Source of the DNA: an uncultured Rhodobacterales bacterium
Lineage (GTDB): Bacteria > Pseudomonadota > Alphaproteobacteria > Rhodobacterales > Rhodobacteraceae
NCBI GenBank assembly: GCA_965366835.1
Contig: CBDUGF010000004.1
Location: forward strand, 1,273-65,272
Direction of reading: 5' to 3'
Length of the DNA stretch: 64,000 bases
This document shows, one piece after another, positions 15,291 to 61,682 of this stretch. Positions within the stretch are counted from its first letter, which is position 1, and every line of letters begins with the position of its first letter. A program made the translations under genes and the position numbers. The notes under the pieces were generated by a model, which was given only the letters and a program-made list of their open reading frames with translations, did not search any database and was not told the origin of the DNA.

Positions 15291-15398
15291 CGAATTGCGA
15301 CGCTGAGTTCGGCCCGCTTTCCGATGCGAAAAGCCCGCCCGCGGATCGCACCCGGAAATCCGTGTCGGATTTCTGACCGTTTTTCGCCTCGAAAAACG
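15291..15398. repeat. four-hairpin composite intergenic element, copy A (partly degenerate)
   Basis: CGAATTGCG-ACG-CTGAGTTCG (degenerate), GCTTTCCG-ATG-CGAAAAGC (1 mismatch), GAAATCCG-TGT-CGGATTTC and CGTTTTTCG-CCT-CGAAAAACG. Ends 10 nt from the tolB stop. Confidence 0.7.
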
Positions 15399-24522: not shown

Positions 24523-24550
24523 ATCAACAAAAAACAACGTTTTTGTTGAT
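24523..24550. promoter_or_regulatory. candidate DeoR operator: inverted repeat ATCAACAAAAA-N6-TTTTTGTTGAT
   Basis: Perfect 11-bp arms in the divergent deoR/oxidoreductase promoter region. The right arm TTTTTGTTGATT recurs at 29652-29663. Confidence 0.5.
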
Positions 24551-30703: not shown

Positions 30704-30815
30704 CGCACCTTTCAGCGCGGCACCGCTCCCTCGTGCCGCGCTGGTCATTCGCCGATGACCGGCCATGCCGGAGCCTCGGTGCGCCCATACTCACCCTTTG
30801 CCCGGACCCCGCCTG

Positions 30816-31847
30816 ATGGACAAGCCGATCCTGCTCGATTGTCGCAATGTCTGGAAGCTTTACGGCGCCCATCCCCGCCGCTTCTTTCAGACCCACGGCG
30901 GCGCTCCCAGCGCCGAGGCGATCAAGGCAGAGGGCCTGATCGGAGCCGTGCGCGACGCCTCGGTGCAAATCCGCCAGGGCGAAATTTTCGTGATCATGGG
31001 CCTGTCTGGCTCGGGCAAGTCAACACTGGTGCGCTGCCTGTCGCGGCTGATCGAACCCACGGGTGGCGAGATCCTGTTCGAAGGTCAGAACCTGTCGGCG
31101 ATGTCCGAGCGCGAGCTTATCGAAATCCGCCGCCGCAAGATGGGCATGGTGTTTCAGCATTTCGCGCTGCTGCCGCATCTGACCGTATTGCAGAACGCCG
31201 CTTTCCCGCTTGAAGTGCAGGGCGTGAGCCGCGCCAGGCGCGAAGCCCGCGCCCGGGAAATGGTCAATCTGGTCGGGCTTGAAGGGCGCGAAAACTATTA
31301 CCCGCGAGAGCTTTCCGGCGGCCAGCAGCAGCGCGTTGGCATTGCCCGCTCGCTAGCTGTCGAGCCTGACCTGTGGTTCCTCGACGAGCCTTTTTCTGCG
31401 CTCGATCCCCTGATCCGCCGCGAAATGCAGGATGAATTCCTGCGTTTGCAATCGCTCTTGCACAAGACCATCGTGTTCATCACCCATGATTTCGACGAGG
31501 CCATACGCCTGGCCGACCGGATCGCAGTGATGAAGGACGGCGCCATCGTGCAGGTCGCCACGCCGGAAGAGCTGGTGCTGAACCCGGCCACCGACTACGT
31601 GCAGGAGTTCACCCGCCACATCCCCCGTGCCAAGGTATTGACCCTGCGCAGCATCATGCGGCCCGGCGCGGCTCCCGGCGCGGTGGCGGGAACGCTGGCC
31701 GCCTCCACCCGTATCGAAGCGGCGGCGGATCGGATCGAGGCTGCCGATGCACCCTTCAACCTTGCCGGTGACGATGGCAGCGTGATCGGTCATGTCGGGC
31801 GCCAGGCGGTGATTGACGTTCTGATCGGGCGGAGGCTCGAGCGATGA
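30816..31847 (+). CDS. glycine betaine/proline-type ABC transporter ATP-binding protein (ProV/OpuAA family)
   Basis: Walker A GLSGSGKST, signature LSGGQQQRVGIAR and Walker B LWFLDEPFSALD, with a C-terminal CBS-like tail. Start at 30816 or 30765. Confidence 0.9.
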   Translation: MDKPILLDCRNVWKLYGAHPRRFFQTHGGAPSAEAIKAEGLIGAVRDASVQIRQGEIFVIMGLSGSGKSTLVRCLSRLIEPTGGEILFEGQNLSAMSERELIEIRRRKMGMVFQHFALLPHLTVLQNAAFPLEVQGVSRARREARAREMVNLVGLEGRENYYPRELSGGQQQRVGIARSLAVEPDLWFLDEPFSALDPLIRREMQDEFLRLQSLLHKTIVFITHDFDEAIRLADRIAVMKDGAIVQVATPEELVLNPATDYVQEFTRHIPRAKVLTLRSIMRPGAAPGAVAGTLAASTRIEAAADRIEAADAPFNLAGDDGSVIGHVGRQAVIDVLIGRRLER

Positions 31848-33853
31848 ACGCCCGGTTAAAACCGTTCCTGCATGCCGGCCCGCTGTTCTGGGCCGGGTTG
31901 TTCGCCATCACCTGGGCGCTGTCCACCTGGTCATTCCAGCTCTACAAGGCGCTCGATGCACGCTGGATCGTGAAATACCCCACTGGCTGGACGCTGCCGC
32001 TGGAAGGCGCGATTTCCGATGCGTTGAAATGGCTGGTCGAGGACGCGAGTTTCGGCCTGTTCAGCTTCCGCGACCTGACCCGATTCATCTCGGCGCTGAT
32101 CGAAGCACCCTACGATTTCGTACGCGGTCTCTTGATTGAAGGATTCCAATCAGGACTGGGCCAGCAGGCAGTGGATATCGCCCCATCGCTGAGCTGGATC
32201 GCGATCATCGTCACGCTCGCCGCCATGGGCCATTACGCTAAAAGCTGGGGCCTGGCCGCTTTGATAGCGGGGTGTTTCCTTTATCTGGCGATCTTCGGGC
32301 AATGGCATTCGGCGATGATCACGCTGGCCTCGGTGTTGATCTCCGTTCCCATCGGCGTGATGGGCGGGCTCTTGCTGGGCATTCTCGCCTATCGCTGGCC
32401 CTGGTTCGACCGGGCGTTGCGCCCTGTTCTCGACCTGATGCAGACGGTGCCGATCTTTGCCTATCTGGTGCCGATCCTGTTCCTGTTCGGCTTCGGTCCG
32501 GTCTCTGCTCTGGTCGCCACCATCATCTATGCCATGCCGCCCATGGTGCGGGTGACCACCGTGGCGCTTCAGGGTGTTCCATCCGAGATCCATGACGTTG
32601 GCCGCATGGTCGGCTGCACCAGACGGCAGATGATGTGGAAGGTGCTGGTGCCCTCCGCCGCGCCCACGCTGATGGTAGGCGTCAACCAGGTGATCATGCT
32701 GACGCTCAACATGGTGATCATCGCGTCGATGATCGGCGCCGGGGGTCTGGGCTATGATGTGCTGACTGCGCTGCGCCGTCTCGATATCGGCGGCGGGATC
32801 GAGGCTGGTGTCGCCATCGTCGTCATGGCGATTGCGCTCGACCGCCTCAGCCAGGCCTTCGCGACCCGCGCCGCCCATGATCGCGCGATGCCGCACGAGG
32901 CCAATCTCCTGCGCCGTCACCCGTGGAGCGCGACGGTGCTGCTGGTCATCATCGGCACCTTCATTCTGGGCCGTGTCATTCCGGCAGTTCAAAGCTTTCC
33001 CGACACTGCAACGCTTTCGACCGGCACGTTCGGGTCGGACGTGATGGAGTATATCAACGTCAATTTCTTTGACGCTTTCGAGGCGGTGAAAACCTTCTTC
33101 CTGACCTGGCTGCTTCTGCCGGTGAAGCGGTTTTTCGCAGGCATCCCATGGGCTTGGGGTATCGCGGCAATGACGTTGATCGGCTGGCGTATGGGCGGCT
33201 GGCGTCTGGCCATGATGACCGGTCTGATGAGTGCGTTCATCGCTGCCTCGGGGCTATGGCCCAAGGCGATGATCACAGTCTATCTCTGCGGCGTATCGGT
33301 GCTGATCGCCACCGTGATCGGCGTTCCCTTCGGTATCCTCGCCGCGCAAAACCAGACCGCCGGCCGCATCATCGGCTCGGTCATCGACACGCTGCAAACC
33401 CTGCCCAGCTTTGTCTATCTCATCCCGGTGGTGATGCTGTTCCGGGTCGGCGATTTCTCGGCCATGATCGCGGTGGTGCTCTATGCGTTGGCGCCGGCTG
33501 TGCGCTATGCCGCCCATGGCATCCGCTCGATTGACCCGCAGTTGATCGAGGCCGGGATTGTCTCGGGCTGCACGCCGCGCCAGCTGTTGTGGCGGATCAA
33601 GCTGCCGATGGCTTTCCCCGAGATCCTGCTGGGCCTCAACCAGACCATCATGCTGGCGCTGTCGATGCTGGTGATCACCGCGTTGGTCGGCACCCGCGAT
33701 CTGGGTCAGGAGGTCTATATCGCGCTGACCAAGGCCAATACCGGCCAAGGGATTGTCGCCGGTCTGTCGGTCGCCTTCATTGCGATGATCGCCGACCGCA
33801 TCCTGTCGGCCGCCGCCCATCATACCCGCCGCAAAATGGGGCTTCAAACATGA
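31844..33853 (+). CDS. ABC transporter permease, tandem-duplicated (two ProW-like BPD_transp_1 domains fused)
   Basis: 669 aa. Two similar halves, each carrying an EAA-like loop region (...LQTVPIFAYLVPILFLFG... and ...LQTLPSFVYLIPVVMLFR...). The start overlaps the proV stop. Confidence 0.85.
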   Translation: MNARLKPFLHAGPLFWAGLFAITWALSTWSFQLYKALDARWIVKYPTGWTLPLEGAISDALKWLVEDASFGLFSFRDLTRFISALIEAPYDFVRGLLIEGFQSGLGQQAVDIAPSLSWIAIIVTLAAMGHYAKSWGLAALIAGCFLYLAIFGQWHSAMITLASVLISVPIGVMGGLLLGILAYRWPWFDRALRPVLDLMQTVPIFAYLVPILFLFGFGPVSALVATIIYAMPPMVRVTTVALQGVPSEIHDVGRMVGCTRRQMMWKVLVPSAAPTLMVGVNQVIMLTLNMVIIASMIGAGGLGYDVLTALRRLDIGGGIEAGVAIVVMAIALDRLSQAFATRAAHDRAMPHEANLLRRHPWSATVLLVIIGTFILGRVIPAVQSFPDTATLSTGTFGSDVMEYINVNFFDAFEAVKTFFLTWLLLPVKRFFAGIPWAWGIAAMTLIGWRMGGWRLAMMTGLMSAFIAASGLWPKAMITVYLCGVSVLIATVIGVPFGILAAQNQTAGRIIGSVIDTLQTLPSFVYLIPVVMLFRVGDFSAMIAVVLYALAPAVRYAAHGIRSIDPQLIEAGIVSGCTPRQLLWRIKLPMAFPEILLGLNQTIMLALSMLVITALVGTRDLGQEVYIALTKANTGQGIVAGLSVAFIAMIADRILSAAAHHTRRKMGLQT

Positions 33854-34737
33854 CAACTCCTGCCGATGCCGCCCTGGCCCGCGCTGCCGGATTGCCGATC
33901 TGGACCGCGCCTCGCGATGTGCAGTTGCTGGGCGGAGGGATCACCAATTTCAACGTCTCGCTGGTGGATCAGGGCAATCGCTATGTGGTGCGCGTGGGCG
34001 AGGACATTCCGCTGCACGGTATCCTGCGTGCAAACGAGTTGGCCGCGCATCGCGCCGCGCAGGCGGTGGGGCTGGCGCCCGCGATCCGGCATGCCGAGCC
34101 TGGTATTCTTGCGATTGAGTTCATTGACAGCAAGACGTTGGGCGAAGCCGAGGTGCGCGCCCCCGAGATGCTGGAGCGGATCGTGCCGCTTCTGCATCGC
34201 TGCCATCACGAGGCGTTTGCAGCGCTGCGTGGGCCGGTGCTGGCCTTCTGGGTGTTCCACGTTCTGCGCGATTATGCCGCCACGCTGCGCGCGGGCAACT
34301 CGCCCTACCTGGCCCGGCTGCCAGACCTGCTTGCCACTGCCGACGGGCTGGAAGCTGCCATCGGGCCGGTCGAAATCGTGTTGGGCCACAACGATCTTCT
34401 GCCCGCCAATTTTCTCGACGACGGAGAAAAACTCTGGCTGATCGACTGGGAATATGCCGGTCTCAACTCTCCGCTTTTCGATCTGGCCGGCCTTGCAACC
34501 AACAATGGTCTTTCCGCCACCCAGGAGGATTGGCTGTTGGAGGCATATTACGACAAAGCGGTTAACGACACCTTACGGCGCCGGTTTGCTGCGATGAAAT
34601 GCGCCTCTTTGATGCGCGAAACCATGTGGTCGATGGTCTCCGAACTGCATTCGGAGATCGACTTCGACTACGCCGCCTATACGCGCGAAAATCAGGGCCG
34701 TCTCGATGCGGCGCTGGCGCATTTCCAAGCCCTGTGA
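33850..34737 (+). CDS. choline/ethanolamine kinase family phosphotransferase (APH fold), copy 2
   Basis: Brenner motif HNDLLPANFL and choline-kinase motif WLIDWEYAGLNSPLFDLA. ATG 33850 overlaps the permease stop (ATGA). Confidence 0.8.
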   Translation: MTTPADAALARAAGLPIWTAPRDVQLLGGGITNFNVSLVDQGNRYVVRVGEDIPLHGILRANELAAHRAAQAVGLAPAIRHAEPGILAIEFIDSKTLGEAEVRAPEMLERIVPLLHRCHHEAFAALRGPVLAFWVFHVLRDYAATLRAGNSPYLARLPDLLATADGLEAAIGPVEIVLGHNDLLPANFLDDGEKLWLIDWEYAGLNSPLFDLAGLATNNGLSATQEDWLLEAYYDKAVNDTLRRRFAAMKCASLMRETMWSMVSELHSEIDFDYAAYTRENQGRLDAALAHFQAL

Positions 34738-34744
34738 GGTTTTC

Positions 34745-37183
34745 ATGAGCACGCTTCCCTCCTCCTCGAAAGTGATTGTCATCGGGGGCGGTATCGTCGG
34801 CTGTTCCACCGCCTATCATCTCGGAAAGCTGGGGGTGGAAACGGTCTTGATCGAGCGCAAGAAACTCACTTCGGGGACTACGTTTCACGCCGCCGGACTG
34901 GTCGGGCAGCTGCGCTCGAACGCCAATATCACCCAGCTTCTGGGCTATTCCGTCGAGCTTTACGACCGGCTGGAAAAAGAGACCGGGCAGGCGACGGGCT
35001 GGAAAATGAATGGCGGGCTGCGGCTGGCCTGCAATCAGGAACGCTGGACCGAGGTGAAACGCCAGGCCACTACGGCGCATTCCTTTGGGCTCGACATGCA
35101 GCTTCTGAGCCCGAAAGAGGCGCAGGATCTCTGGCCCTTGATGGATGTGAGCGATGTTGTCGGCGCCGCCTTCCTGCCCACCGATGGCCAGGCCAACCCC
35201 TCGGACATAACGCTGTCACTGGCCAAGGGTGCGCGCATGGGCGGAGTGCAGATCCTTGAGGATACAAGGGCGCTGCGCGTGGTGGTGGAAAAAGGTGTGA
35301 TCATCGGGGTGGAGACCGACAAGGGGCTGATTGCATGCGAGAAAGTGGTGCTGTGCGGCGGCCAGTGGAGCCGGGATTTTGCCGCACAGTCGGGGGTGAA
35401 TGTCCCGCTGGTTTCGGTCGAACATCAATACATGGTGACCGAACCGATCAAGGGCGTGACCCCGGATATGCCCACCCTGCGCGACCCGGACCGGCTGACC
35501 TATTACAAGGAAGAGGTCGGCGGGCTGGTGATGGGCGGCTACGAGGCCAATCCGATTCCCTGGGCGATTGACGGCATCCCGAAGGGCTTTCACTACACCG
35601 TGCTCGACAGCAATTTCGACCATTTCGAACAGATTGTCGAGCTGGCTTTGGGCCGGGTTCCGGCGCTGGAGACCGCCGGGATCAAGCAGCTGTTGAACGG
35701 GCCGGAGAGCTTTACCCCGGATGGCAATTTCATCCTCGGTGAAGCGCCGGAGCTGAAGAATTTCTTTGTCGGAGCAGGGTTTAACGCCTTTGGAATCGCC
35801 TCGGGCGGCGGCGCGGGCATGGCGCTGGCCGAGTGGGTTGCGAAGGGCGCACCGCCGTTCGATCTCTGGCCGGTGGATATCCGCCGCTTTGGCCGGCCGC
35901 ATTTCGATACCGATTGGGTGCGCACCCGCACGCTGGAGGCGTATGGCAAGCATTACACCATGGCCTGGCCATTCGAGGAGCACTCCTCGGGGCGGCCTTG
36001 CCGCAAATCGCCGCTCTATGACACGCTGCTGGCACGCGGCGCTTGTTTTGGTGAAAAGCTGGGCTGGGAACGGCCCAACTGGTTTGCGCATGAGGGCCAG
36101 GAGGCGCGCGATATCTACTCCTTCGGGCGGCAGAACTGGTTTGAAAATGTCGGTGAAGAGCACCGTGCGGCGCGCGCGGCGGCGGTGCTGATCGACCAGA
36201 CTTCCTTTGCCAAGTTCACCCTCAAGGGGCCGGATGCCGAAGCCGCGCTGAGCTGGATCGCGGCAAATGATGTGAGCGGGCCGGTGGGCAAGCTGACCTA
36301 TACCCAGATGCTGAACGATCACGGCGGGATCGAATGCGATCTGACCTGTGTGCGGGTGGCTGAGGACGAGTATTACATCGTCACCGGCACCGGCTTTGCC
36401 ACCCATGATTTTCACTGGATTTCCAGCAACATACCCGAGGGGATGAACGCCCAGCTGGTGGATGTCACCTCGGGTCATTCGGTGCTGTCGCTGATGGGGC
36501 CGAAGGCGCGCGATATCCTTCAAGCGGTGACCCGCAACGATGTGTCGAACGCCGCCTTTCCGTTTGGCACCGCGCAGGTGATCGGCATCGCGGGCTGTCC
36601 GGTGCGCGCGCTGCGGCTGACCTATGTGGGCGAGCTGGGCTGGGAGCTGCACCTGCCGACTGAATATGCCGCGACGGTTTACCAGACCCTTACGGCGGCG
36701 GGCGCGGCGCATGGGTTGCGCGATGCGGGCTATCGCGCGATCGAGAGCTTGCGGCTGGAGAAAGGTTACCGCGCCTGGGGGTCGGATATCGGGCCGGACC
36801 ATACGCCGGATGAGGCGGGTTTGGGATGGGCGGTAAAACTGAAGAAAAACAATGACTTCAAAGGGCGCGCGGCGGCAGAGAAACAACGCCGCGAAGGGGT
36901 GAGGAAAATCCTCGCCGGGTTCACGGCGGCGCCTGACGTGGTGCTGTCGGGGCGCGAGACGATCTATCGCAACGGCGAGCGCGTAGGCTGGCTCAGCTCT
37001 GGCGGATATGGATATACAATAGAAAAATCAATCGGTTACGGATATGTGCGCAGCAGCGATCCGATTGATGCGGGCTTTGTGATGGCGGGCGATTACGAGC
37101 TGGAAGTGGCGACCGAGCGGGTGGCTTGCGAGGTGCATCTGGCGCCGCTCCATGATCCGGAGATGGCACGGATCAAGTGCTGA
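34745..37183 (+). CDS. FAD-dependent oxidoreductase with C-terminal GcvT-type domain (dimethylglycine/sarcosine dehydrogenase family), paralogue 2
   Basis: 812 aa with GGGIVGCSTAYHL, HAAGLVGQLRS, TYVGELGWELHLP and GYRAIESLRLEKGY. ATG 34745 lies 5 nt after GAGG. Confidence 0.88.
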   Translation: MSTLPSSSKVIVIGGGIVGCSTAYHLGKLGVETVLIERKKLTSGTTFHAAGLVGQLRSNANITQLLGYSVELYDRLEKETGQATGWKMNGGLRLACNQERWTEVKRQATTAHSFGLDMQLLSPKEAQDLWPLMDVSDVVGAAFLPTDGQANPSDITLSLAKGARMGGVQILEDTRALRVVVEKGVIIGVETDKGLIACEKVVLCGGQWSRDFAAQSGVNVPLVSVEHQYMVTEPIKGVTPDMPTLRDPDRLTYYKEEVGGLVMGGYEANPIPWAIDGIPKGFHYTVLDSNFDHFEQIVELALGRVPALETAGIKQLLNGPESFTPDGNFILGEAPELKNFFVGAGFNAFGIASGGGAGMALAEWVAKGAPPFDLWPVDIRRFGRPHFDTDWVRTRTLEAYGKHYTMAWPFEEHSSGRPCRKSPLYDTLLARGACFGEKLGWERPNWFAHEGQEARDIYSFGRQNWFENVGEEHRAARAAAVLIDQTSFAKFTLKGPDAEAALSWIAANDVSGPVGKLTYTQMLNDHGGIECDLTCVRVAEDEYYIVTGTGFATHDFHWISSNIPEGMNAQLVDVTSGHSVLSLMGPKARDILQAVTRNDVSNAAFPFGTAQVIGIAGCPVRALRLTYVGELGWELHLPTEYAATVYQTLTAAGAAHGLRDAGYRAIESLRLEKGYRAWGSDIGPDHTPDEAGLGWAVKLKKNNDFKGRAAAEKQRREGVRKILAGFTAAPDVVLSGRETIYRNGERVGWLSSGGYGYTIEKSIGYGYVRSSDPIDAGFVMAGDYELEVATERVACEVHLAPLHDPEMARIKC

Positions 37184-37240
37184 AATGCGCCACCGCGCGG
37201 CGCGTTAGGATTTGACGGAGATCGCCGAATTCAGGGGGGT

Positions 37241-37284
37241 GACTCCCGGCTGCCACCCGGCTGACTCCCGGCTGCCGGGGAGTC
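37241..37284. repeat. direct repeat GACTCCCGGCTGCC x2 followed by complementary GGGGAGTC
   Basis: Copies at 37241-37254 and 37263-37276. CGGCTGACTCCCGGCTG also occurs reverse-complemented at 19975-19993 with 1 mismatch. Confidence 0.7.
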
Positions 37285-37337
37285 CGGGCGTGTGACGGTA
37301 AGAAGGGTTAAGAAAACCTTGAAATGCGTCGCGTGAG

Positions 37338-37456
37338 TCGAATTCCGACGCGGAATTCGATTTGTTTTCCGACGCGGAAAACAGTGCCAGTCCGTCGAGG
37401 CCACACTGCGCTGAAATCCGCGTCGGATTTCGAACCGAATTTCGCGTCGAAATTCG
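37338..37456. repeat. four-hairpin composite intergenic element, copy B
   Basis: TCGAATTCCG-ACG-CGGAATTCGA, GTTTTCCG-ACG-CGGAAAAC, a 30-nt spacer, GAAATCCG-CGT-CGGATTTC and CGAATTTCG-CGT-CGAAATTCG. All stems are perfect. Ends 6 nt from the HMG-CoA reductase stop. Confidence 0.85.
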
Positions 37457-37461
37457 GCGTT

Positions 37462-38694
37462 TCAGGCCAATAGCGCGCGCGCGACGTCTTCGCGAATTTC
37501 GCCGCGCTCGATCAGGGCCGCGGCAACACGCTCGATCTCTTCCCCCCTGGCCCCCGCCGCGATGGCCACGTTACGGGCATGCAGGCCCATATGACCGCGC
37601 TGAATACCCTCGCCCGCCAGCGCCCTGAGCGCCGAGAAGTTCTGGATCAGTCCGACCGCCGCCATGACCCGCGCCAGCCGGTCGCCGGTCGTCGCGCCCA
37701 TGATCTTGAGACATGCCTGCGCCGTGGGATGTACCCGCGTGGCGCCGCCGACAATGCCCATCGGCACCGGCACTTCGATCTCGCCGAGCAAATCGCCCTC
37801 CGGCGTCCTGGCATAGCGGGTCAGCGGGCCATAACCGTCGCGCGCGGCGAAGGCATGCGCCCCGGCCTCGAGCGCGCGGCTGTCATTGCCGGTGGCCAGC
37901 GCCACGGCGGAGATGCCATTCATGATGCCCTTGTTGTGGGTCGCGGCGCGGTACGGATCATGGGCGGCGAATTCCCAGGCCGACAGGATGCCATCGACCG
38001 TCTCGGCGCCGATTTCCGACGCGGACCAGAGCGCATGGGCGCGCACCAGCCGACGGTCGGCGAGGTTGGACAGGATGCGCAGCCCCGCCTTGCCGCCGGT
38101 CCAGGCTTCCAGCTTCGGCGCCAGTTTTTCGGCCATGGTGTTGACAGTGTTGGCGCCCATCGCGTCGCGCACGTCGATGATCAGATGCACCACGAGAAAC
38201 GGGCCTGCGATACGCACGTCGAGATCGCGGAACCCGCCGCCGAGTTGCACGAGCATCGGATCGCAGCTGTCGCATATCCCGGCGATTTCGGTGCGCCTGT
38301 CCTCGACTGCGGATTTGGCCGCCTCGAGATCGGCCAGGCCGATGAGCTGTACCTGCGCGATCATCTGCGGCGCATCCGCCTCGGTCGTCACCCCACCGGT
38401 GGCGCGACAGGCGCGCGCGCCGTTGCATACCGCGGCGATGACCGAGCTTTCCTCGCTCGCCATCGGCACCAGCACATCGCGCCCGTCGACGATCAGGTTG
38501 GTGGCGACACCCAGAGGGACGGCCATGACCGAGATCACGTTTTCGCTCAGGTTGTCGGCGAGATCGCCGTCATGGGCGGCGGTGGCAGCGAGATGAGCCA
38601 CTTCATCAGCGGTGAGCCGGGCGGCTTCGGCAATGCGCGCGAGCCGGTCGGCGCGCGAAAGGTTGTGGAAGCCGGGAATGCGGGATGTGGTCAT
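37462..38694 (-). CDS. mvaA: hydroxymethylglutaryl-CoA reductase, degradative (class II, NAD-dependent type)
   Basis: About 410 aa, with class II HMGR blocks (SENVISVMAVPLGVA, MASEESSVIAA, DAMGANTVNTMAE, GNDSRA, GLHARN). ATG 38694 follows GGAGGAG. Confidence 0.85.
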   Translation of the reverse strand: MTTSRIPGFHNLSRADRLARIAEAARLTADEVAHLAATAAHDGDLADNLSENVISVMAVPLGVATNLIVDGRDVLVPMASEESSVIAAVCNGARACRATGGVTTEADAPQMIAQVQLIGLADLEAAKSAVEDRRTEIAGICDSCDPMLVQLGGGFRDLDVRIAGPFLVVHLIIDVRDAMGANTVNTMAEKLAPKLEAWTGGKAGLRILSNLADRRLVRAHALWSASEIGAETVDGILSAWEFAAHDPYRAATHNKGIMNGISAVALATGNDSRALEAGAHAFAARDGYGPLTRYARTPEGDLLGEIEVPVPMGIVGGATRVHPTAQACLKIMGATTGDRLARVMAAVGLIQNFSALRALAGEGIQRGHMGLHARNVAIAAGARGEEIERVAAALIERGEIREDVARALLA

Positions 38695-38856
38695 GGGGCG
38701 TTCTCCTCCGGGCAAAGGGACCCGTTGGCGGAGGTGAGGTCAAGAGGGTGTAGAGGAGGTAAGCGCCCTCCCTCGGGTGGGCGCATGCAACAAAAGAGGG
38801 GAGCTCTTTATCCAGGAGGCCCCTAGCGACCTGACACTGGTGCGGAACATTACCAA

Positions 38857-38885
38857 AGCGCCCTCCCGGTGGGAGGGAGGGCGCT
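38857..38885 (-). terminator. hairpin downstream of prpE (possible terminator, weak U tract)
   Basis: AGCGCCCTCCC-N7-GGGAGGGCGCT with an 11-bp stem. The minus strand is followed by UUGGUAAUGUU. Confidence 0.45.
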
Positions 38886-38923
38886 GCCCGGCGGCTCTGC
38901 GAGCCTTGATTCCGGGCTGGGCG

Positions 38924-40813
38924 CTATTTCGCGTAGCCAATCGCCTGCAACGCCTCTGCGATTTCGTCGAGAACCGCCGGGTCGTCGATTGTCGCCGGCA
39001 TCTTCCATTCGCCGCCATCGGCGATCGACACCATGGTGGCGCGCAGGATCTTGCCCGAGCGGGTCTTGGGCAGGCGATCCACGACAACGGCGAGCTTGAA
39101 TGCCGCCACCGGGCCGATCTTGTCGCGCACCAGCTTGACCACCTCGGCGGTGATCTCGTCATGCGGGCGATCGACACCCTTGGTCAGGCAGACGAAGCCG
39201 ACCGGCAACTGCCCCTTGAGCTGATCCGTCACGCCGATGACGGCGCATTCGGCCACATCCGGGTGGCTGGCCAGAACCTCTTCCATCGCGCCGGTGCTGA
39301 GCCGGTGCCCGGCGACGTTGATCACATCGTCGGTGCGCGCCATGATGTAGAGATAGCCGTCTTCGTCGATCATGCCGGCATCGCCGGTTTCGTAATAGCC
39401 CGGGAAATGGCTGAGATAGCTCTTCTGGAAGCGCTCTTCGGCGTTCCAGAGATTGGGCAGCGTGCCCGGCGGCAACGGCAGCTTGACCGCGATGGCGCCC
39501 AATTCGCCCGGCTTCATCGGGTTGCCGCCTTCGTCGAGGATCTGCACGTCATAGCCGGGCATCGCCACGGTCGGGCTGCCGAGCTTGACCGGCAGCGCTT
39601 CGATCCCCACCGGGTTGCCGGCGATGGTCCAGCCGGTTTCGGTCTGCCACCAGTGGTCATAGACCGGTTTGCCGGTCATCTCTTGGGTCCAGACGATGGT
39701 ATCGGGATCGGCGCGCTCGCCGGCGAGATAGATCGCGTTGAGCGCACTGAGGTCGTATTTGCGGATGAATTCGCCCTTGGGGTCTTCGCGTTTGACGGCG
39801 CGAAAGGCGGTGGGCGCGGTGAAGAAGCTCTTGACCTTGTGTTCCGAGATCACCCGCCAGAAGGTGCCGGCATCGGGGGTGCCGACGGGCTTGCCCTCGA
39901 ACACGATGGTGGTGTTGCCGTGGATCAGCGGCGCGTAGCAGATATAGCTGTGGCCGACGACCCAGCCGACATCGGAGGCGGCCCAGAACACATCGCCGGG
40001 ATCGACGTTGTAGATGTTCTTCATCGTCCAGTTCAGTGCCACAAGCTGGCCCGCGGTATGGCGGATCACGCCCTTGGGCGCGCCGGTGGTGCCGGAAGTG
40101 TAGAGGATATAGGACGGGTGATTGCCCTCGACGGGGACGCAATCGGCCGGAGCGACGCCTTTCTGCGCCTCGTACCAGTCGAAATCGCGACCCTCGGTGA
40201 GCGGCGCGACTTCCTCTTCGCGTTGCAGGATCAGGGTGAAATCGGGCTTGTGTTTGGCGAGGTCAATGGCGCCGTCGAGCAGGGGTTTGTATTTCACCAC
40301 GCGGCCCGGTTCGAGCCCGCAAGAGGCGGCGATGATCGCCTTGGGCCTGGCATCGTCGATCCGCACCGCCAGCTCGTTGGCGGCAAAGCCGCCGAACACA
40401 ACCGAATGGATCGCGCCGATGCGCCCGCAGGCCAACATCGCTTCCAAAGCCTGCGGCACCATCGGCATGTAGATCACCACGCGATCGCCCTTTTCGACCC
40501 CCTTGGCCTTGAGCGCCCCGGCGAGGCCGGCAACGCGGGTTTTCAGCTCGGCGAAGGAGATGTGTTCCTGGCGTCCGGTGATCGGGCTGTCATAGATGAT
40601 CGCGGTCTGCTCGGCTCGGCCATTTTCAACGTGGCGGTCGACCGCGTTCCAGCAGGTGTTGCATTTGGCGTCGGCATACCACTCGTAGAGATTGTTGCCC
40701 TTGTCGAAGAGCGCCTTCGAGGGCGGTTTGTCCCAGTCGATGGCCTTGGCCGCCTCCATCCAGAATGTTTCGGGGTCGGCTTTCCAGGCGTTATAGACGT
40801 CGCGGTATCCCAT
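38924..40813 (-). CDS. prpE: propionate--CoA ligase (acyl-CoA synthetase, ACS family)
   Basis: 629 aa with AMP-binding motif YTSGTTGAPKG. The N-terminus MGYRDVYNAWKADPETFW and the length are typical of PrpE rather than Acs. Confidence 0.8.
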   Translation of the reverse strand: MGYRDVYNAWKADPETFWMEAAKAIDWDKPPSKALFDKGNNLYEWYADAKCNTCWNAVDRHVENGRAEQTAIIYDSPITGRQEHISFAELKTRVAGLAGALKAKGVEKGDRVVIYMPMVPQALEAMLACGRIGAIHSVVFGGFAANELAVRIDDARPKAIIAASCGLEPGRVVKYKPLLDGAIDLAKHKPDFTLILQREEEVAPLTEGRDFDWYEAQKGVAPADCVPVEGNHPSYILYTSGTTGAPKGVIRHTAGQLVALNWTMKNIYNVDPGDVFWAASDVGWVVGHSYICYAPLIHGNTTIVFEGKPVGTPDAGTFWRVISEHKVKSFFTAPTAFRAVKREDPKGEFIRKYDLSALNAIYLAGERADPDTIVWTQEMTGKPVYDHWWQTETGWTIAGNPVGIEALPVKLGSPTVAMPGYDVQILDEGGNPMKPGELGAIAVKLPLPPGTLPNLWNAEERFQKSYLSHFPGYYETGDAGMIDEDGYLYIMARTDDVINVAGHRLSTGAMEEVLASHPDVAECAVIGVTDQLKGQLPVGFVCLTKGVDRPHDEITAEVVKLVRDKIGPVAAFKLAVVVDRLPKTRSGKILRATMVSIADGGEWKMPATIDDPAVLDEIAEALQAIGYAK

Positions 40814-40908
40814 GGCATACTCCTCCTCGGCTTGGTAAAGGAGTTACGCCCTCTCGACGCCACCGGGCAACCCCCTTGGGCGACCTAGCGTCAGTTTATC
40901 GCAAGATA

Positions 40909-41020
40909 TTTGCAAGACCTGCCGGAGCGGAGCTGCAAATTTTTGCAAAGCCCTGTTTTATATACAATTGGCCTGCATAGCCCACCCTTGTTTGCAAAAT
41001 TGCGAACTTGCTTCTGCAAA
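40909..41020. promoter_or_regulatory. cluster of TTTGCAAA-type repeats upstream of prpE
   Basis: TTTGCAAG at 40909-40916, TGCAAA-TT-TTTGCAAA at 40934-40949, TTTGCAAA at 40991-40998 and TGCAAA at 41015-41020. Confidence 0.5.
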
Positions 41021-41042
41021 CACCGATTCGTCGCGCCCCGAC

Positions 41043-41372
41043 TCAATGTGACGGCTTGTCGGGATTGATCGCGGGGAAGGTTGCGGTCGGCGTGTGCTTG
41101 GTAATCACCTTGCGGCGTCTGGTTTCTTCAAGCACGCGCTGCGCGGTGAGAGCGCATTTGCCGAGGCAATTATATCCGACACCATTGACGTAAACCGTTT
41201 GGATAAACTCGTCTTCTTCCTGCAATCCCACTTGGCGGGTAACGGTCATGCTAACCACTCTGTAAGCCTTGCCATCGACCGTGACGTAAGTGGTGACCCC
41301 CGCGGTTTCGTTGAGAATACAGGCCGAAAGGCCCAGAACCGTAACGCAACACACTGCAATAAGCCGCATCAT
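41043..41372 (-). CDS. small hypothetical lipoprotein
   Basis: 109 aa. MMRLIAVCCVTVLGLSAC carries a lipobox. ATG 41372 is preceded by GGGGAGG. GC looks locally lower. No family recognised. Confidence 0.55.
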   Translation of the reverse strand: MMRLIAVCCVTVLGLSACILNETAGVTTYVTVDGKAYRVVSMTVTRQVGLQEEDEFIQTVYVNGVGYNCLGKCALTAQRVLEETRRRKVITKHTPTATFPAINPDKPSH

Positions 41373-41449
41373 CGAAGCCTCCCCGCATCGTGCATCCCCG
41401 CGCCCGAGGATACACGACTGCAGGCAATTCCCCAAATCGGAGCCTGAGC

Positions 41450-43747
41450 TCAGCCGTAATGCTCGACCGGGGTTCCGGCCACGGCGGCCATGTTCAGCAG
41501 GCCGCGCGGGGTGACGCCGGGGGTGACGATATGGGCGCGGTTGCCCATGCCCATCAGGATCGGACCGACCTCGAGACCGCCGCCTTTCATCTTGAGAATG
41601 TTGCGCACGCCAGAGGCGGCATCGGCATGGGCGAAGATCAGCACGTTGGCCGCACCGTCGAGCCGACCGTCGGGCAACAGCCGCTCGCGCAGATCGGGAT
41701 CGAGCGCGGCATCGACATTCATCTCGCCCTCATAGGTGAAATCGCGCGGCGCCGCATCGAGCAGCGCCATCGCGTCGCGCAGGCGCCTGCCCGAGCCTTC
41801 GGCCTGGTTGCCGAATTGCGATTGCGAACAGAAGGCGATCTTGGGTTCGATCCCGAAGCGGCGCACATGGCGCGCGGCCCCGACCGCCACTTCGGCCAGC
41901 TGTTCCGGGCTGGGCGTGCTCCAGACATGGGTATCGGCGATGAACAGCGGCCCGCTTTCGAGAATCATCATGCTGAGCGCGCCATGCGGGCGTTGCGTCT
42001 TGCTGCCCAGAACCTGGGAAATATAGCCCAGATGCCAGCGGTATTCGCCGAAAGTGCCGCAGATCATGCTGTCGGCCTCGTCGCGATGCACCATGATGGC
42101 GGCAATCGCCGTGGTGTTGGTACGCATGATGGCGCGGGCGATATCGGGGGTGACGCCGCGGCGCGCCATGATCTGGTGATAGCTGCCCCAGTAGTCGCGG
42201 TAGCGCGGGTCGTTCTCGGGGTTGACGACCTGGAAATCGCGGCCCGGGCGGATGGTCAGACCATCGCGTTCGCAGCGCGCTTCCAGAACCTCGGGGCGGC
42301 CGATCAGGATCGGCTGTTCGGTGGTTTCCTCGAGAATCGCCTGCGCCGCGCGCAGCACGCGATCATCCTCGCCCTCGGCGAACACGATCCGGCGCGACGC
42401 GGTACGCGCGGCATCGAACACCGGGCGCATCAGCAGCGCGGACTTGAACACCGACTGGTTCAGTTTCTGGCGGTATTCGGCAAAGTTTTCGATCTCGCGG
42501 GTGGCGACACCGCTTTTCATCGCCGCTTCGGCTACGGCGGAGGAGACGATGGCCACCAGCCGCGGATCGAACGGTTTGGGGATCAGATATTCGGGCCCGA
42601 AGGTGAGGTGTTCGCCCTGATAGGCGGCCGCGGCCTCGGCGCTTGTGGTGGCGCGGGCCAGTTCGGCGATGCCCTCGATACAGGCGATCTGCATCTCGTC
42701 ATTGATCTCGGTGGCGCCGACATCGAGCGCACCGCGAAAGATGAACGGAAAACACAGCACGTTGTTGACCTGATTGGGATAATCGCTGCGCCCGGTGGCG
42801 ATGATCGCGTCCGGCGCCACCGTTCTGACCTCTTCCGGCAGGATTTCGGGCGTCGGATTGGCCAGCGCGAAGATGATCGGCTGACCGGTCATCTTCGCCA
42901 CCATTTCGGGCGTCAGGACGCCGGGGCCGGAAAGGCCGAGGAACAGGTCGGCGCCATCAATGACATCGTCGAGTGTGCGCAGATCGCTGTCTTGCGCAAA
43001 AGCCGCCTTTTGCGGGTTCATGTCTTCGGTGCGGCCTTCATAGACCAGCCCGTGAATATCGCAGAGCCAGACGTTTTCGCGCTTCACCCCGAGTTTCAGC
43101 AGCATGTTGAGGCAGGCGATGCCGGCCGCGCCGCCGCCGGTGGAGACGATCTTGATCTTGTCGAATGTCTTGCCTGCGACATGCAGCGCGTTGGTGGCGG
43201 CGGCGCCGACGACGATGGCGGTACCGTGCTGATCGTCGTGAAATACCGGGATGTTCATCCGCTCGCGGCACAGCTTCTCGACGATGAAGCAATCGGGCGC
43301 CTTGATGTCTTCGAGGTTGATCGCGCCGAATGTCGGTTCGAGGGCGCAGACGATATCGGCGAGACGCTCGGGATCGGATTCGTTGACCTCGATATCGAAA
43401 CAGTCGATGCCGGCGAAATTCTTGAACAGCACCGCCTTGCCTTCCATCACCGGCTTGGACGCCAACGCGCCGATATTGCCGAGGCCGAGCACCGCCGTGC
43501 CGTTGGAGACCACCGCCACGAGATTGCCGCGCGCGGTGTAGCGCCGCGCATTGGCCGGATCGTCCCTGATCTCGAGGCTGGCCTCGGCGACACCGGGGGA
43601 ATAGGCGCGGGCCAGATCGCGGCCATTTGCCAGCGGCTTGGTGGCGCGGATCTCGAGCTTGCCGGGTTTGGGAAACTCATGATATTGCAAGGCCGCCTGA
43701 CGCAGGGCTTCCTTGGGGTCTCTGGGATCTCGGATGTCTTTCGACAT
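41450..43747 (-). CDS. maeB: NADP-dependent malic enzyme (malic enzyme domain fused to PTA-like domain)
   Basis: 765 aa with the N-terminus [15 protein letters not shown], a malic enzyme NAD(P) domain and a C-terminal phosphate-acetyltransferase-like domain. Confidence 0.93.
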
Positions 43748-43773
43748 GGTGCGGCCTCGCGGAATTGGCAATT

Positions 43774-43787
43774 GTTTAACGTTAAAC
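43774..43787. promoter_or_regulatory. perfect 14-bp palindrome GTTTAACGTTAAAC in the maeB/nucleoside-operon divergent region
   Basis: Seen directly. It is flanked by GCAATTG (43768-43774), and a second GCAATTG lies about 70 nt downstream. Confidence 0.4.
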
Positions 43788-43888
43788 TACTTTTTTGGCG
43801 AGGGGAAGCCGGGGTTTTCCACGGCCTGCAGACGCCTCATCTTGCAATTGAGTGTATCCCCGCGCAGACTTGGACGTCGAGGGGGGCA

Positions 43889-44995
43889 ATGATGCACGGA
43901 AAACAGGATGAAATCCGGGCCGAGATCCGGCTTCCGACGCAGGAATTGCGGGACGACATTCCGTTTTTCACCAAGGTGCTGCGGATGCGGATGGACATGA
44001 TCTATCCCGCCGATTCCCCGCGTGTCGCGGTGTTTTCCGGCCATGGGCTGCGGCTGCGCATCGAGCAGGGGGCGGAGGAAACGCCCGGCACGATCCGCAT
44101 CCTGAGCGACACGCCGGATGCTTTTGCCGAAGGCCGGCGCCGCCTGACCGCGCCCAATGGCACGCGCGTGGAAATCGAAGAGCTGAACCCGGCGCTGGTG
44201 CTGCCCGAGACCCGGCATGCCTTTGTCGTGCGGCGGCTGGCCGACGAGGCGCCCTGGATCATCGGGCGCGCCGGCATGCAGTATCGCGACCTCATTCCTG
44301 ATCGGCTCGGCGGCTCGATCATCGCCAGCCATATCCGCATCCCCGATGCCGGGCCGGTTCCCGACATGGTGCATTTTCACAAGGTCGGGTTTCAGCTGAT
44401 CTTCTGCGTCTCCGGCTGGGTCGATGTGCTCTATGAGGATCAGGGCGGCTTGCGCCGGCTCACCCCCGGCGATTGCTTCATCCAGCCGCCCGAGATCCGC
44501 CACCGGGTGATGGAGGCGAGCGAGAACCTGCAGGTGATCGAGATCGGGGTGCCGGCGGATCATGTGACCGAGATCGACCACGAGATGACCCTGCCGACGC
44601 CGGAGCTGCGCCCAGAGCGGGAATGGGGCGGGCAGCGGTTTGTGCATGATATCGGGGCCGAGGCCGATTGGGCGCCGCACCGCCTGCCCGGTTTTGAGGC
44701 GCGCGATACCACGATTGCGCGCAACACCGGCGATGTCGCCGGGGTCTGGGTGGTGCGGCGGGCTGAAGGCGGGCCGGTCTGGGCGCGTCACGATGCCGAT
44801 ATCCTGTTCGGCTATGTGATGGCGGGCAAGGTGACGCTCGAGGGCGAGGGCCAGCCGGACCATGCACTCGCGCTGGGCGACGCCTTTGTCATCCCGCCGG
44901 GGATGAAGACCCGGCTTTCGGCTGCGTCGGATGATTTCGAACTGCTGGAAGTGGCCCTGCCGGGCGATTTTGCAACCATACTGGAGGACCGATGA
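43889..44995 (+). CDS. cupin domain-containing protein (apparent bicupin), function unknown
   Basis: This is the C-terminal 368 codons of a 1201-aa composite ORF; the upstream part is the antisense shadow of maeB. ATG 43889 follows GAGGGGGG. Two cupin-like cores (HFHKVGFQLIFCVSGWVDVLYED...PPEIRHRV and ...ILFGYVMAGKVTLEGEG..GDAFVIPPG). The stop overlaps the cdd start. Confidence 0.65.
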   Translation: MMHGKQDEIRAEIRLPTQELRDDIPFFTKVLRMRMDMIYPADSPRVAVFSGHGLRLRIEQGAEETPGTIRILSDTPDAFAEGRRRLTAPNGTRVEIEELNPALVLPETRHAFVVRRLADEAPWIIGRAGMQYRDLIPDRLGGSIIASHIRIPDAGPVPDMVHFHKVGFQLIFCVSGWVDVLYEDQGGLRRLTPGDCFIQPPEIRHRVMEASENLQVIEIGVPADHVTEIDHEMTLPTPELRPEREWGGQRFVHDIGAEADWAPHRLPGFEARDTTIARNTGDVAGVWVVRRAEGGPVWARHDADILFGYVMAGKVTLEGEGQPDHALALGDAFVIPPGMKTRLSAASDDFELLEVALPGDFATILEDR

Positions 44996-45402
44996 TGCCG
45001 CTTCTCGATGCCGCCCGCAGCGTGCGCGAAAACGCCTATGCCCCGTATTCGCATTTCAGGGTCGGCGCGGCAGTGCGCGGCAAATCGGGGGCGATCTATA
45101 GCGGCTGCAATGTCGAGAACGCGGCCTATCCCGAGGGCACCTGCGCCGAGGCCGGGGCGATTGCGGCGATGGTGGCGGCGGGCGAGACCGAGCTGGTCGA
45201 GGTGGCGGTGATCGCCGACAGCCCGCACCCGGTGCCGCCTTGCGGCGGCTGCCGCCAGAAGCTGGCCGAGTTCGGCGCCGGGCATGTGATGGTGACCCTG
45301 GCGACGACCGGCGGGGCAGAGAGCCGTCATAGCATTTCCGAGCTGTTGCCGGGGGCCTTCGCGCTCGACCATATGAGCCACGGCGACGGCGGCGAAAGCT
45401 GA
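44992..45402 (+). CDS. cdd: cytidine deaminase
   Basis: 136 aa with Zn ligand motifs CAEAGAI and PCGGCRQKL. Confidence 0.92.
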   Translation: MMPLLDAARSVRENAYAPYSHFRVGAAVRGKSGAIYSGCNVENAAYPEGTCAEAGAIAAMVAAGETELVEVAVIADSPHPVPPCGGCRQKLAEFGAGHVMVTLATTGGAESRHSISELLPGAFALDHMSHGDGGES

Positions 45403-61548: not shown

Positions 61549-61563
61549 GGTTTCCTCCCGTGA

Positions 61564-61679: not shown

Positions 61680-61682
61680 GCT

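Follow-up and report, generated by a model that had tools for sequence, protein, structure and literature searches.

A probable family of dyad-symmetric palindromic repeats in the Roseobacter group, akin to REP, BIME and REPIN elements

Three intergenic loci in a 64-kb stretch of DNA from an uncultured Rhodobacterales bacterium (64,000 nucleotides analysed as a whole, hereafter the window) probably belong to a dispersed, non-coding and dyad-symmetric family of palindromic repeats of the Roseobacter group (Rhodobacteraceae/Paracoccaceae), and would be its counterpart of REP, BIME and REPIN elements. In gamma-proteobacteria, REP-type repeats have been studied extensively. The present family is apparently undescribed so far, as the first-pass annotation of this DNA had supposed: the literature searched gave no description of REP-type repeats in Rhodobacteraceae or roseobacters, and an Rfam scan of the whole window returned nothing at the gathering threshold. 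A permissive Rfam scan of positions 37150-37550 produced only meaningless microRNA-like matches, such as MIR6297, matched because of a long-hairpin shape at 39 bits (threshold, 114). The Roseobacter group is an ecologically dominant marine clade. The family offers a ready marker for intergenic annotation and strain typing.

Three composite elements in the window

The window holds three copies of a composite element, which amounts to about 12 hairpins in 64 kb: copy A (15291-15398, plus strand), copy B (37338-37457, plus strand) and copy C (61564-61680, minus strand). The full composite is made of two units, a spacer of 20-30 nt and two further units in inverted orientation, and the linkers between hairpins (H1 to H4) measure 3-5 nt. 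Each unit is a perfect hairpin of 19-21 nt with the consensus CG-WWWT-CCG N3 CGG-AWWW-CG, recurring at a spacing of 24 nt, and its stem of 8-10 bp and loop of 3 nt give it the geometry of the short palindromic units that characterize the REP class.

The repeats are far in excess of chance. Matches to WWWYCGNNNCGRWWW numbered 13 in the window where 0.75 was expected, with 12 of the 13 inside the three loci, and the refined unit CGWWWTCCGNNNCGGAWWWCG, with up to two mismatches, was matched nine times against 0.06 expected, always within these loci. With a covariance model, copies A, B and C reached 112-133 bits (E about 1e-26 to 1e-31), and its search of the window revealed no further match. The order H1-H2-spacer-H3-H4 could be aligned across the three copies and a metagenome-assembled genome of the Paracoccaceae (L105), with a mean column identity of 80%. 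The first-pass annotation had proposed three copies of four hairpins, and all the hairpins that it listed were found; as it had also stated, the reverse complement of copy C has the stem order of copy B with a 27-nt spacer, and copy A is a degenerate version in the orientation of copy B.

All three copies are intergenic and occupy the extragenic, 3'-UTR or intra-operon position typical of REPs. Their proximity to the stop codon of a minus-strand gene, noticed from the start, was confirmed at each copy, the distance from stop codon to element ranging from 2 to 10 nt. The neighbouring genes encode TolB, a degradative HMG-CoA reductase and a Mo-hydroxylase, and copies occur in both orientations relative to transcription.

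Copy B, a complete four-hairpin element (132 bits with the covariance model), lies between convergent genes. It comprises H1 (37338-37360, with a 10-bp stem), H2 (37363-37383), H3 (37413-37431) and H4 (37435-37457), and 30 nt (37383-37412) lie between the 8-bp stem of H2 and that of H3. H4 is 4-6 nt from the stop codon of the degradative HMG-CoA reductase gene (37462-38715, minus strand), whose true start is probably about seven codons within the listed ORF; as this ORF begins too early, the locus was compared via homologues. The convergent neighbour (34706-37183, plus strand) encodes a fusion of an FAD oxidoreductase and an aminomethyltransferase resembling dimethylglycine or sarcosine dehydrogenases. 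The orthologue of copy B in a metagenome strain of 99% identity (L160) differs by three SNPs, one of which breaks the H2 stem in this natural strain, indicating that the constraint is not absolute. A blastn search with copy B as the query found no counterpart among 72,556 plasmids.

When folded as RNA, copy B prefers a single long hairpin over four local ones (-68.3 kcal/mol, z = -6.6). The minimum-energy fold pairs H4 with H1 and the core of H3 with that of H2, and 19 of 21 positions agree between H1 and the reverse-complemented H4. In the fold of copy C, long-hairpin pairing is limited to the H2 and H3 cores.

Palindromy, covariation and dyad symmetry

The first-pass annotation had reported co-varying stems from the three copies, a view that was borne out and much strengthened once about 20 elements had been aligned. 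In this alignment (A4), which was fitted to the model and contains both strands of each element, 97-98% of the stem positions are Watson-Crick paired, double-sided changes affect 32 of the 34 stem pairs, and none of 500 shuffles reached the observed covariation. Among 696 stem cells, only five are G-U pairs and 14 are mismatches. At the variable W positions, a change on one arm is mirrored on the other, and the core TCCG N3 CGGA shows an occupancy of 87-94% per position. The near-absence of G-U pairs points to palindromy at the DNA level, equal on both strands, rather than to ordinary covariation of an RNA structure.

The same data qualify the earlier proposal that selection acts on structure rather than on sequence. 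Pairing is indeed maintained, but stem sequences are themselves conserved as a few types, GAAATCCG, GTTTTCCG, GAATTCCG and GGTTTCCG (their frequencies are biased, since sampling was seeded on GAAATCCG and GTTTTCCG), and G-U pairs make up only 5 of the 696 cells. Adjacent units within arrays differ in stem type, and the same order of specific stem sequences is found at unrelated loci and across genera.

Loops, initially taken as three free nucleotides, proved to be patterned. Those of the left half (H1 and H2) are ACG-like and those of the right half (H3 and H4) are CGT-like, that is, their reverse complement, which gives the element its dyad symmetry. Among the loop pairs of one and the same array, 34 have either the same sequence or reverse-complementary sequences; 8.0 +/- 2.6 would be expected, and none of 5000 shuffles reached the observed number. 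Between copies B and C, stems are far better conserved than linkers and spacer. This divergence fits old copies under constraint, or a homogenization limited to the hairpins, better than recent transposition.

Distribution and history of the arrays

The annotation had recommended a search of related genomes for further copies and for their positions relative to stop codons. Among the matches listed in a single-hairpin scan of a genome collection, many were from Rhodobacteraceae, including Litorisediminicola, Seohaeicola, Leisingera, Pseudodonghicola, Roseivivax, Sinisalibacter, Ruegeria, Thalassovita and Nioella, and several genomes had at least 3-6 loci each. Neighbouring hairpins among these matches are 23-25 nt apart in 53 of 76 distances and 47-49 nt apart in 15 more. 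A scan of metagenomes added 31 loci, and arrays in Rhodobacteraceae genomes and marine metagenomes consist of 2-5 units. Other phyla contributed lone hairpins only, among the matches listed. The 10 matches in viral contigs, which double as a chance control, were likewise all lone hairpins without a single array, suggesting that the elements are not phage-borne. Three related genera, with 21 kb examined in each, showed no composite. For about 48 arrays, the majority had the end of a flanking ORF within about 3-35 nt, mostly 3-25 nt, according to crude ORF calls, and no clear case was located in a divergent-promoter spacer.

Comparison of orthologous intergenic regions, which the annotation had suggested, uncovered presence/absence differences at all three loci. 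Copy A is the older and partly degenerate copy (112 bits) and occupies the tolB-pal spacer. Its H1 (15292-15310) and H2 (15316-15334) carry three mismatches and one mismatch, respectively, H3 (15355-15373) and H4 (15378-15398) are perfect, and the stop codon of tolB (15408-16745, minus strand; TolB_N and PD40 domains) is 9 nt from H4; pal, of the OmpA family (14678-15193, minus strand), lies downstream. In this spacer, orthologous arrays were found at two loci of relatives (L121 and L120) and are deleted at three others (L117-L119). The sites of copies A and B also bear arrays in a more distant strain, D3-12 (CP104793), whereas closer relatives, the LMO-12 group, have none at either the tolB-pal or the HMG-CoA reductase site; a remnant, TTGAGGGATTTT, is retained by the LMO-12 group at tolB-pal. 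In D3-12, both arrays have CTTT-N-AAAG cores, so that the hairpin core is CCG-N3-CGG in the window species versus CTT-TNA-AAG in this strain. At orthologous sites, stems are kept and loops and linkers drift. These comparisons show that the element has persisted for a long time at some sites (A and B, shared with D3-12) and has been lost in the LMO-12 group, and that its hairpin core changes in concert, in a species-specific manner.

Copy C (133 bits) records a gain. This complete element in the opposite orientation comprises H1 (61660-61680), H2 (61637-61655), a 27-nt spacer (61610-61636), H3 (61587-61609) and H4' (61564-61584), and occupies a 134-nt gap separating two genes. On one side, the large subunit of a Mo-cofactor hydroxylase from a nicotinate-degradation-type cluster (61683-63968, minus strand) ends with a TAG stop codon 2-3 nt from H1; its ORF probably runs beyond the end of the window, since its relatives have 905-912 aa. 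On the other side, the Shine-Dalgarno sequence GGGAGG of a 6-hydroxynicotinate reductase gene, so named from database sources (60064-61548, minus strand), begins 5 nt past H4'. In four relatives (L153, L154, L155 and L157), namely Marimonas arenosa, Alisedimentitalea, Aquicoccus and one from a metagenome with 90% identity, the two genes overlap by 8 nt (ATGGCTGA). In the window and a 100%-identical contig, they are instead separated by the 134-nt spacer, which contains the element and brings both a stop codon and a Shine-Dalgarno sequence that are new. ATGG flanks the inserted DNA on both sides. According to these alignments, copy C was inserted recently, at a junction where the two genes had once overlapped. 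The insertion split a translationally coupled gene pair while supplying the stop codon and the ribosome-binding site, and represents a natural experiment that shows how such repeats can remodel operon architecture.

Relation to known repeat families and competing explanations

REPs (repetitive extragenic palindromes) and BIMEs (bacterial interspersed mosaic elements) are known from Enterobacteriaceae and Pseudomonas. In E. coli, they are made of extragenic palindromic units that often lie about 15 nt or less from a stop codon and form clusters in which short linkers join the units; the REPs of enterobacteria have imperfect, G+C-rich palindromes of 30-40 nt. REPs as a class reach dozens to hundreds of copies in a genome. 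The E. coli REP and BIME properties used in our comparison come partly from PMC2817692 and PMC3733652. The likeness to REP/BIME elements that the annotation had noted extends to several levels: the roseobacter elements are extragenic, located past stop codons, clustered with short linkers, composed of slightly different stem types with neighbours in inverted orientation, gained and lost among relatives, and species-specific in sequence at orthologous sites. The differing and alternating units of a BIME find their equivalent in the 24-nt period and the excess of related loop pairs (34 against 8.0). In contrast to enterobacterial REPs, the roseobacter units are perfect palindromes with A/T-rich stems of 8-10 bp and a fixed 3-nt loop, and their arrays differ from REP/BIME elements in being strictly 24-nt phased, in lacking a GTAG/CGTC tag, and in that no RAYT gene was found in the window or about 1.4 Mb of related loci.

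REPINs are REP doublets that form hairpins (Bertels and Rainey, PMC3116915, PMC3337134). Several features recall them, namely two inverted halves with a spacer, a total length of about 110-120 bp, the folding of the whole of copy B into one long hairpin, and the apparent decay of the elements in the lineage that lost them, the LMO-12 group. Unlike in REPINs, each half here consists of two short perfect palindromes, and the W tracts of H2 and H3 are non-complementary, so that the long hairpin is interrupted. A further comparison is offered by Br-REP1 and Br-REP2 of Bradyrhizobium japonicum, which are multi-palindrome 3'-UTR elements, Br-REP1 having about 200 copies (Hahn et al. 2016, PMC5082802). 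These are also alphaproteobacterial, place several palindromes in 3' UTRs, including between convergent genes, vary strongly in abundance between related species, and have GGAAT/ATTCC-type half-sites that look similar. However, the arms are arranged differently, CCGG being outside in Br-REP1, 24-nt phased arrays are absent from Br-REP, and the Br-REP1 consensus CCGGAATCTCGAGATTCCGG had no match in the window with up to three mismatches.

Other explanations were weighed against a REP-like family. Small, non-coding elements with inverted ends and insertion polymorphism among relatives recall MITEs, and the element could be seen as one, moved by a DDE-type transposase encoded elsewhere in the genome, with H1 and H4 (19/21 in copy B) as terminal inverted repeats and ATGG at locus C as a short target-site duplication. 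We regard this as unlikely. The possible 4-nt duplication is found at one site only, where some duplication was needed for both overlapping genes to survive and may therefore reflect survivorship rather than mechanism, and locus B shows none against the empty site of LMO-12. Moreover, arrays of 2-5 units in strict 24-nt register are unexpected for a fixed-length MITE, the internal perfect palindromes are a further difference from MITEs, and no parent insertion sequence was identified. It is similarly improbable that the loci are RNA structures selected independently of one another, as 3'-UTR or intercistronic stabilizers or as signals for selective RNA processing and stabilization, rather than repeats related by descent. 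The stability of the folds of copies B and C (-61 to -68 kcal/mol, z = -4.3 to -6.6), the location directly 3' of stop codons and the retention of stems at orthologous sites where loops and linkers drift would all agree with such structures. Yet unrelated loci, and different genera, share the same order of specific stem sequences, hardly any G-U pairs occur, copies point both ways with respect to transcription, and what locus C received was a four-hairpin element that was already complete; fixed-length A/T-rich stems in a genome of 64% G+C are also unexpected from selection on RNA stability alone.

Intrinsic (Rho-independent) terminators of an atypical kind are very unlikely, in agreement with the annotation, which had dismissed a classical terminator. 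The hairpins do lie just past stop codons, and copy B is between convergent genes, but the outer stems are A/T-rich, no hairpin is followed by a U tract, and a terminator scan of 30000-45000 does not call the hairpins, its 12 terminator-like sites being at the level of chance (11.7 expected). Furthermore, copies A and C are inside operons, between co-oriented genes, and the hydroxylase-reductase pair overlaps in relatives. There is also very little probability that the units are phased double-stranded binding sites, in which TCCG-N3-CGGA palindromes are recognized by a dimeric DNA-binding or nucleoid-associated protein, in spite of the conserved core and the regular 24-nt spacing. These sites are at gene 3' ends and within operons instead of promoter regions, symmetric W changes on both arms are not required by half-site recognition, and the core is replaced by CTTT-N-AAAG at the orthologous sites of D3-12; an operator array was rejected on these grounds. 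A CRISPR array, already discounted by the annotation, was likewise rejected, as the units are non-identical and are separated by linkers of just 3-5 nt in place of unique spacers, and as the scanned ORFs of the window and the annotated genes of syntenic relatives include no cas gene.

For the REP-like family favoured here, spread and homogenization would take place at the DNA level, with the palindromes folded as hairpins or cruciforms, and would be driven by an enzyme that recognizes hairpins (RAYT-like or otherwise), by template switching between adjacent units, or by both. We also infer a role at the RNA level: once transcribed, the element would fold into very stable stem-loops directly 3' of the stop codon, which may serve as REP-like 3'-UTR elements, as barriers to 3'-5' exonucleases, as pause or attenuation sites, or as translation uncouplers within operons. 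The annotation had recommended a search for a RAYT/TnpA-REP-type gene. REPs and REPINs mobilized by a RAYT (a Y1 HUH transposase, PF01797) share their genome with one copy of its gene, usually with REPs on its flanks, and bear a GTAG or CGTC tetranucleotide at one foot of the palindrome. By tblastn, E. coli TnpA-REP (a probe validated against PDB 4ER8) and IS200 TnpA gave no match to the window or to about 1.4 Mb of related loci; no transposase domain was seen among the scanned window ORFs or the annotated genes of syntenic relatives, and Pfam searches of low-GC3 gap ORFs of the window returned housekeeping domains only. A tentative possibility, which we hold to be doubtful, is that the arrays are propagated and kept perfectly palindromic by a non-RAYT mechanism and form a mechanistically distinct class of palindromic repeats. 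An unrecognized hairpin- or cruciform-specific enzyme, or replication template switching between 24-nt-phased units, would be candidates, and either could rewrite hairpin cores concertedly across the genome, as exemplified by the different cores of the window species and D3-12 and by the matching or reverse-complementary loops of each array. Should a RAYT gene be present, the family would simply be one more REP/RAYT pair. Perfect palindromy, strict 24-nt phasing, missing RAYT hallmarks and concerted core changes make these repeats a good system for studying how palindromic repeats originate and are homogenized. Position frequencies over 134 units gave no GTAG/CGTC tag beside the units; in the same set, the only preferences next to the unit are C at -1 and G at +20, which extend the stem, and conservation is weak from -6 to -2 and from +21 to +25.

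Anatomy of the tandem-hairpin elements

The window carries three tandem-hairpin elements, copies A (15291-15398), B (37338-37457) and C (61564-61680), whose hairpins are designated H1 to H4. Direct reading of these regions, together with a listing of the window's perfect inverted repeats, recovered all of the hairpins reported by the first-pass annotation. Copy B is composed of four perfect inverted repeats, H1 (TCGAATTCCG-ACG-CGGAATTCGA, 37338-37360), H2 (37363-37383), H3 (37413-37431) and H4 (37435-37457); the 8-bp stem of H2 is separated from that of H3 by 30 nt. Copy C displays the same hairpin order on the opposite strand, with H1 at 61660-61680, H2 at 61637-61655, a 27-nt spacer, H3 at 61587-61609 and H4' at 61564-61584. 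The H1 (15292-15310) and H2 (15316-15334) of copy A are degenerate, with three mismatches and one mismatch, respectively, and its H3 and H4 are both perfect. This three-copy pattern is far above chance expectation: across the window, the loose pattern WWWYCGNNNCGRWWW had 13 matches against 0.75 expected, and the refined unit CGWWWTCCGNNNCGGAWWWCG had nine against 0.06 expected, all nine within the three copies. A covariance model built from the three copies and one homologue scored them at 112-133 bits and found no further match in the 64-kb window. The window also holds a perfect 11-bp A/T-rich hairpin (ATCAACAAAAA-N6-TTTTTGTTGAT, 24523-24550) immediately preceding the ORF at 24608-27031; its sequence bears no relation to that of the repeats.

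In a model-based alignment of about 20 elements, fitted to the model and including both strands of each element, standard pairs occupied 98% of stem cells, two-sided changes affected 32 of 34 pairs, and the covariation score was 0.571 versus 0.135 after shuffling, a value reached by none of 500 shuffles. Shifting the partner column by one in this same fitted alignment reduced pairing to 42-60%. With each element counted once, stems comprised 677 Watson-Crick pairs, five G-U pairs and 14 mismatches; such a scarcity of G-U would be expected for palindromes preserved as DNA or read on both strands, and would not be expected from ordinary RNA-structure evolution. The loops likewise proved to be matched within arrays, with 34 identical or reverse-complementary pairs across 48 arrays versus 8.0 +/- 2.6 by shuffling (0 of 5000 shuffles reaching 34). 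The four-hairpin form has ACG/ACA/ATG/GCG-type loops in H1 and H2 and their reverse complements (CGT/TGT/CGC) in H3 and H4, which makes the composite a "palindrome of palindromes" with dyad symmetry. As RNA, copy B is predicted to prefer a single long hairpin (-68.3 kcal/mol, z = -6.6) and copy C to pair its H2 core with its H3 core at long range (-61.1 kcal/mol, z = -4.3); the fold predicted for the degenerate copy A is unremarkable (z = -1.0). A match of 37337-37458 to the plant microRNA precursor MIR6297, at 39 bits versus a threshold of 114, was dismissed as an artefact of the long-hairpin shape.

Distribution among related genomes

Scanning one genome per species with a hairpin common to the three copies (GAAATCCG-N3-CGGATTTC) revealed at least 116 loci. 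Among the matches listed, about 35 were from Rhodobacteraceae/Paracoccaceae, including Litorisediminicola (at least five loci), MAG UBA9292 (at least four) and Seohaeicola (at least three), as well as Leisingera, Pseudodonghicola, Roseivivax, Sinisalibacter, Ruegeria, Thalassovita, Nioella and Thiosulfatihalobacter. Most of these listed loci placed the query within an array of two to five similar hairpins; the listed matches from other phyla and all ten from viral contigs were lone hairpins and provided a control for chance. With a more stringent pattern of two hairpins, 31 metagenome loci were identified, likewise arrays. Of 76 distances between neighbouring hairpins, 53 were 23-25 nt and a further 15 were 47-49 nt. 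The consensus of 134 non-redundant units, C-G-W-W-W-T-C-C-G N3 C-G-G-A-W-W-W-C-G (W, A or T), has no conserved positions beyond the palindrome; sampling was seeded on two stem types, whose frequencies are thus inflated, the partner hairpins (GGTTTCCG, GAATTCCG, GGAAACCG and others) being free of this selection. No elements were detected in 21-kb samples from each of Marimonas, Alisedimentitalea and Aquicoccus. Outside Rhodobacteraceae, MAGs assigned to Alphaproteobacteria or Pseudomonadota, one of them from Salaquimonas, gave weak model matches (23-29 bits; L107 1660-1765, L031 3650-3768 and L019 3090-3143), which may represent related arrays of other lineages.

Gene neighbourhood, gain and loss

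Based on Pfam and homology searches, copy A occupies the spacer between the minus-strand genes tolB and pal; copy B is flanked by a convergent FAD-oxidoreductase/aminomethyltransferase gene and a degradative HMG-CoA reductase gene; and copy C separates the minus-strand genes for a Mo-cofactor hydroxylase and 6-hydroxynicotinate reductase. The adjacency to stop codons noted in the first pass holds for all three copies, which begin 2-10 nt past a stop codon, and 5 nt separate the end of copy C from the Shine-Dalgarno sequence (GGGAGG) of the following gene. Relative to transcription, copy C is reversed with respect to copies A and B, indicating that orientation is unconstrained. The genes around copy C (60064-63968), as in the related loci L153-L157, form a nicotinate-degradation-type cluster of FAD and Mo-cofactor hydroxylase subunits and 6-hydroxynicotinate reductase, the latter having no Pfam domain in the window. 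Downstream of the HMG-CoA reductase gene, at a distance of about 60-130 nt, a G+C-rich motif (37205-37285) comprises two direct copies of TGACTCCCGGCTGCC and a hairpin (GACTCCCCGGC-A-GCCGGGAGTC); it matches no Rfam family, is kept in a relative, LMO-12 (L158, about 11290-11350), despite a different adjoining gene, and could be a conserved terminator or small RNA.

Among relatives with genomes, the nearest are Rhodobacteraceae bacterium LMO-12 (Pal 88% identical), D3-12 (80%), Marimonas, Alisedimentitalea and Aquicoccus; metagenome contigs of a 99-100%-identical strain were used for comparison within the species. At locus C, Marimonas arenosa, Alisedimentitalea, Aquicoccus and a metagenome relative of 90% identity have no gap between the hydroxylase and reductase genes, whose ends overlap by 8 nt (GATGGCTGA). 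In the window and a 100%-identical contig, these genes are 134 nt apart and the gap is filled by the element; ATGG stands on both sides, and the new stop codon (TAG) and Shine-Dalgarno sequence both come from the inserted DNA. From this comparison, copy C is a clean, recent gain. The locus A array is shared by the window and the 99%-identical strain, with a difference of one loop SNP. D3-12 has it at the corresponding position (L120 9781-9873), its four hairpins keeping an exact 24-nt register, with unchanged W-tract stems and three of four cores rewritten to CTTT-G-AAAG or CT-TTG-AG. In the LMO-12 group, this array has been deleted, leaving a fragment (TTGAGGGATTTT) that matches a D3-12 hairpin. 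At locus B, the window species has four hairpins, D3-12 has two (L159 11253-11300), one of them with a CTTT-C-AAAG core, and LMO-12 has none. The replacement of CCG-N3-CGG by CTTT-N-AAAG cores at two D3-12 loci implies concerted change across loci. Taken together, the three loci show that elements can be gained, can survive divergence at the genus level, can undergo concerted, species-specific core changes and can be purged from a lineage. An extra 11-bp hairpin immediately before the pal ribosome-binding site of D3-12 (AAGCGTTTCGG-N7-CCGAAACGCTT, L120 9944-9972) is missing from the tolB-pal spacers of the window and LMO-12.

Within the species, copy B has three SNPs, copy C none and the 214-nt tolB-pal spacer holding copy A one, in the H4 loop. 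In the 99%-identical strain (L160), one copy B SNP (37380) breaks an H2 pair and the remaining two fall in linker and spacer. This polymorphism is ordinary.

Relationship to REP-type repeats

With its anatomy, distribution, gain, loss and concerted change documented here, this repeat family has all the testable features of REP/BIME elements in the descriptive sense. Like REP, BIME and REPIN sequences, its units are short extragenic palindromes clustered with short linkers, adjacent units differ in type and are inverted relative to one another, stop codons lie close by, and relatives differ by gain and loss, with species-specific sequences at orthologous sites. This combination of palindromy, clustering, stop-codon position and turnover is a REP/BIME/REPIN-type signature, and the element is taken to be a roseobacter counterpart of these repeats. 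The GTAG/CGTC tag of RAYT-mobilised REPs (RAYT, REP-associated Y1 transposase) was absent around the units in the 134-unit position frequencies. Searches of the window and about 1.4 Mb of related loci, with a RAYT probe validated on 4ER8, and of the genes annotated in syntenic relatives revealed no RAYT- or IS200-like gene. The closest described alphaproteobacterial analogues are Br-REP1/2 of Bradyrhizobium, 3'-UTR composites of several palindromes with about 200 copies (PMC5082802), whose consensus does not occur in the window. No Rfam family matches the element, and no account of comparable repeats in Rhodobacteraceae emerged from the literature searched. The first-pass reading, REP/BIME-like with no described family, was essentially right, and the element is apparently an undescribed, lineage-specific variant of a well-known kind.

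A DDE-type MITE is possible but unlikely, given the inverted ends and the single ATGG duplication at locus C, yet unit number varies, phasing is strict and locus B has no duplication. That the arrays are independently selected RNA structures is unlikely, as this would leave unexplained why unrelated loci have specific stems in a common order, why G-U pairs are scarce, why both orientations occur and how a ready-made element was inserted. Still less probable are arrays of protein operators, which match neither the location nor the symmetric changes of both arms, and, to a similar degree, intrinsic terminators, since the hairpins have no U tracts, as the first-pass annotation had remarked, and the genes flanking two of the copies are co-oriented, one such pair overlapping in relatives.

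The observation is real, and the perfect palindromy, the strict 24-nt phasing, the concerted rewriting of cores and an insertion separating a formerly overlapping gene pair merit further work, with no surprise of principle. The elements may propagate and be homogenised via a hairpin or cruciform form of the DNA. By analogy with E. coli REPs, documented in these roles as summarised in PMC5082802 and paper abstracts, transcribed arrays might act as 3'-end protectors, as pause sites or attenuators, or as translation uncouplers.
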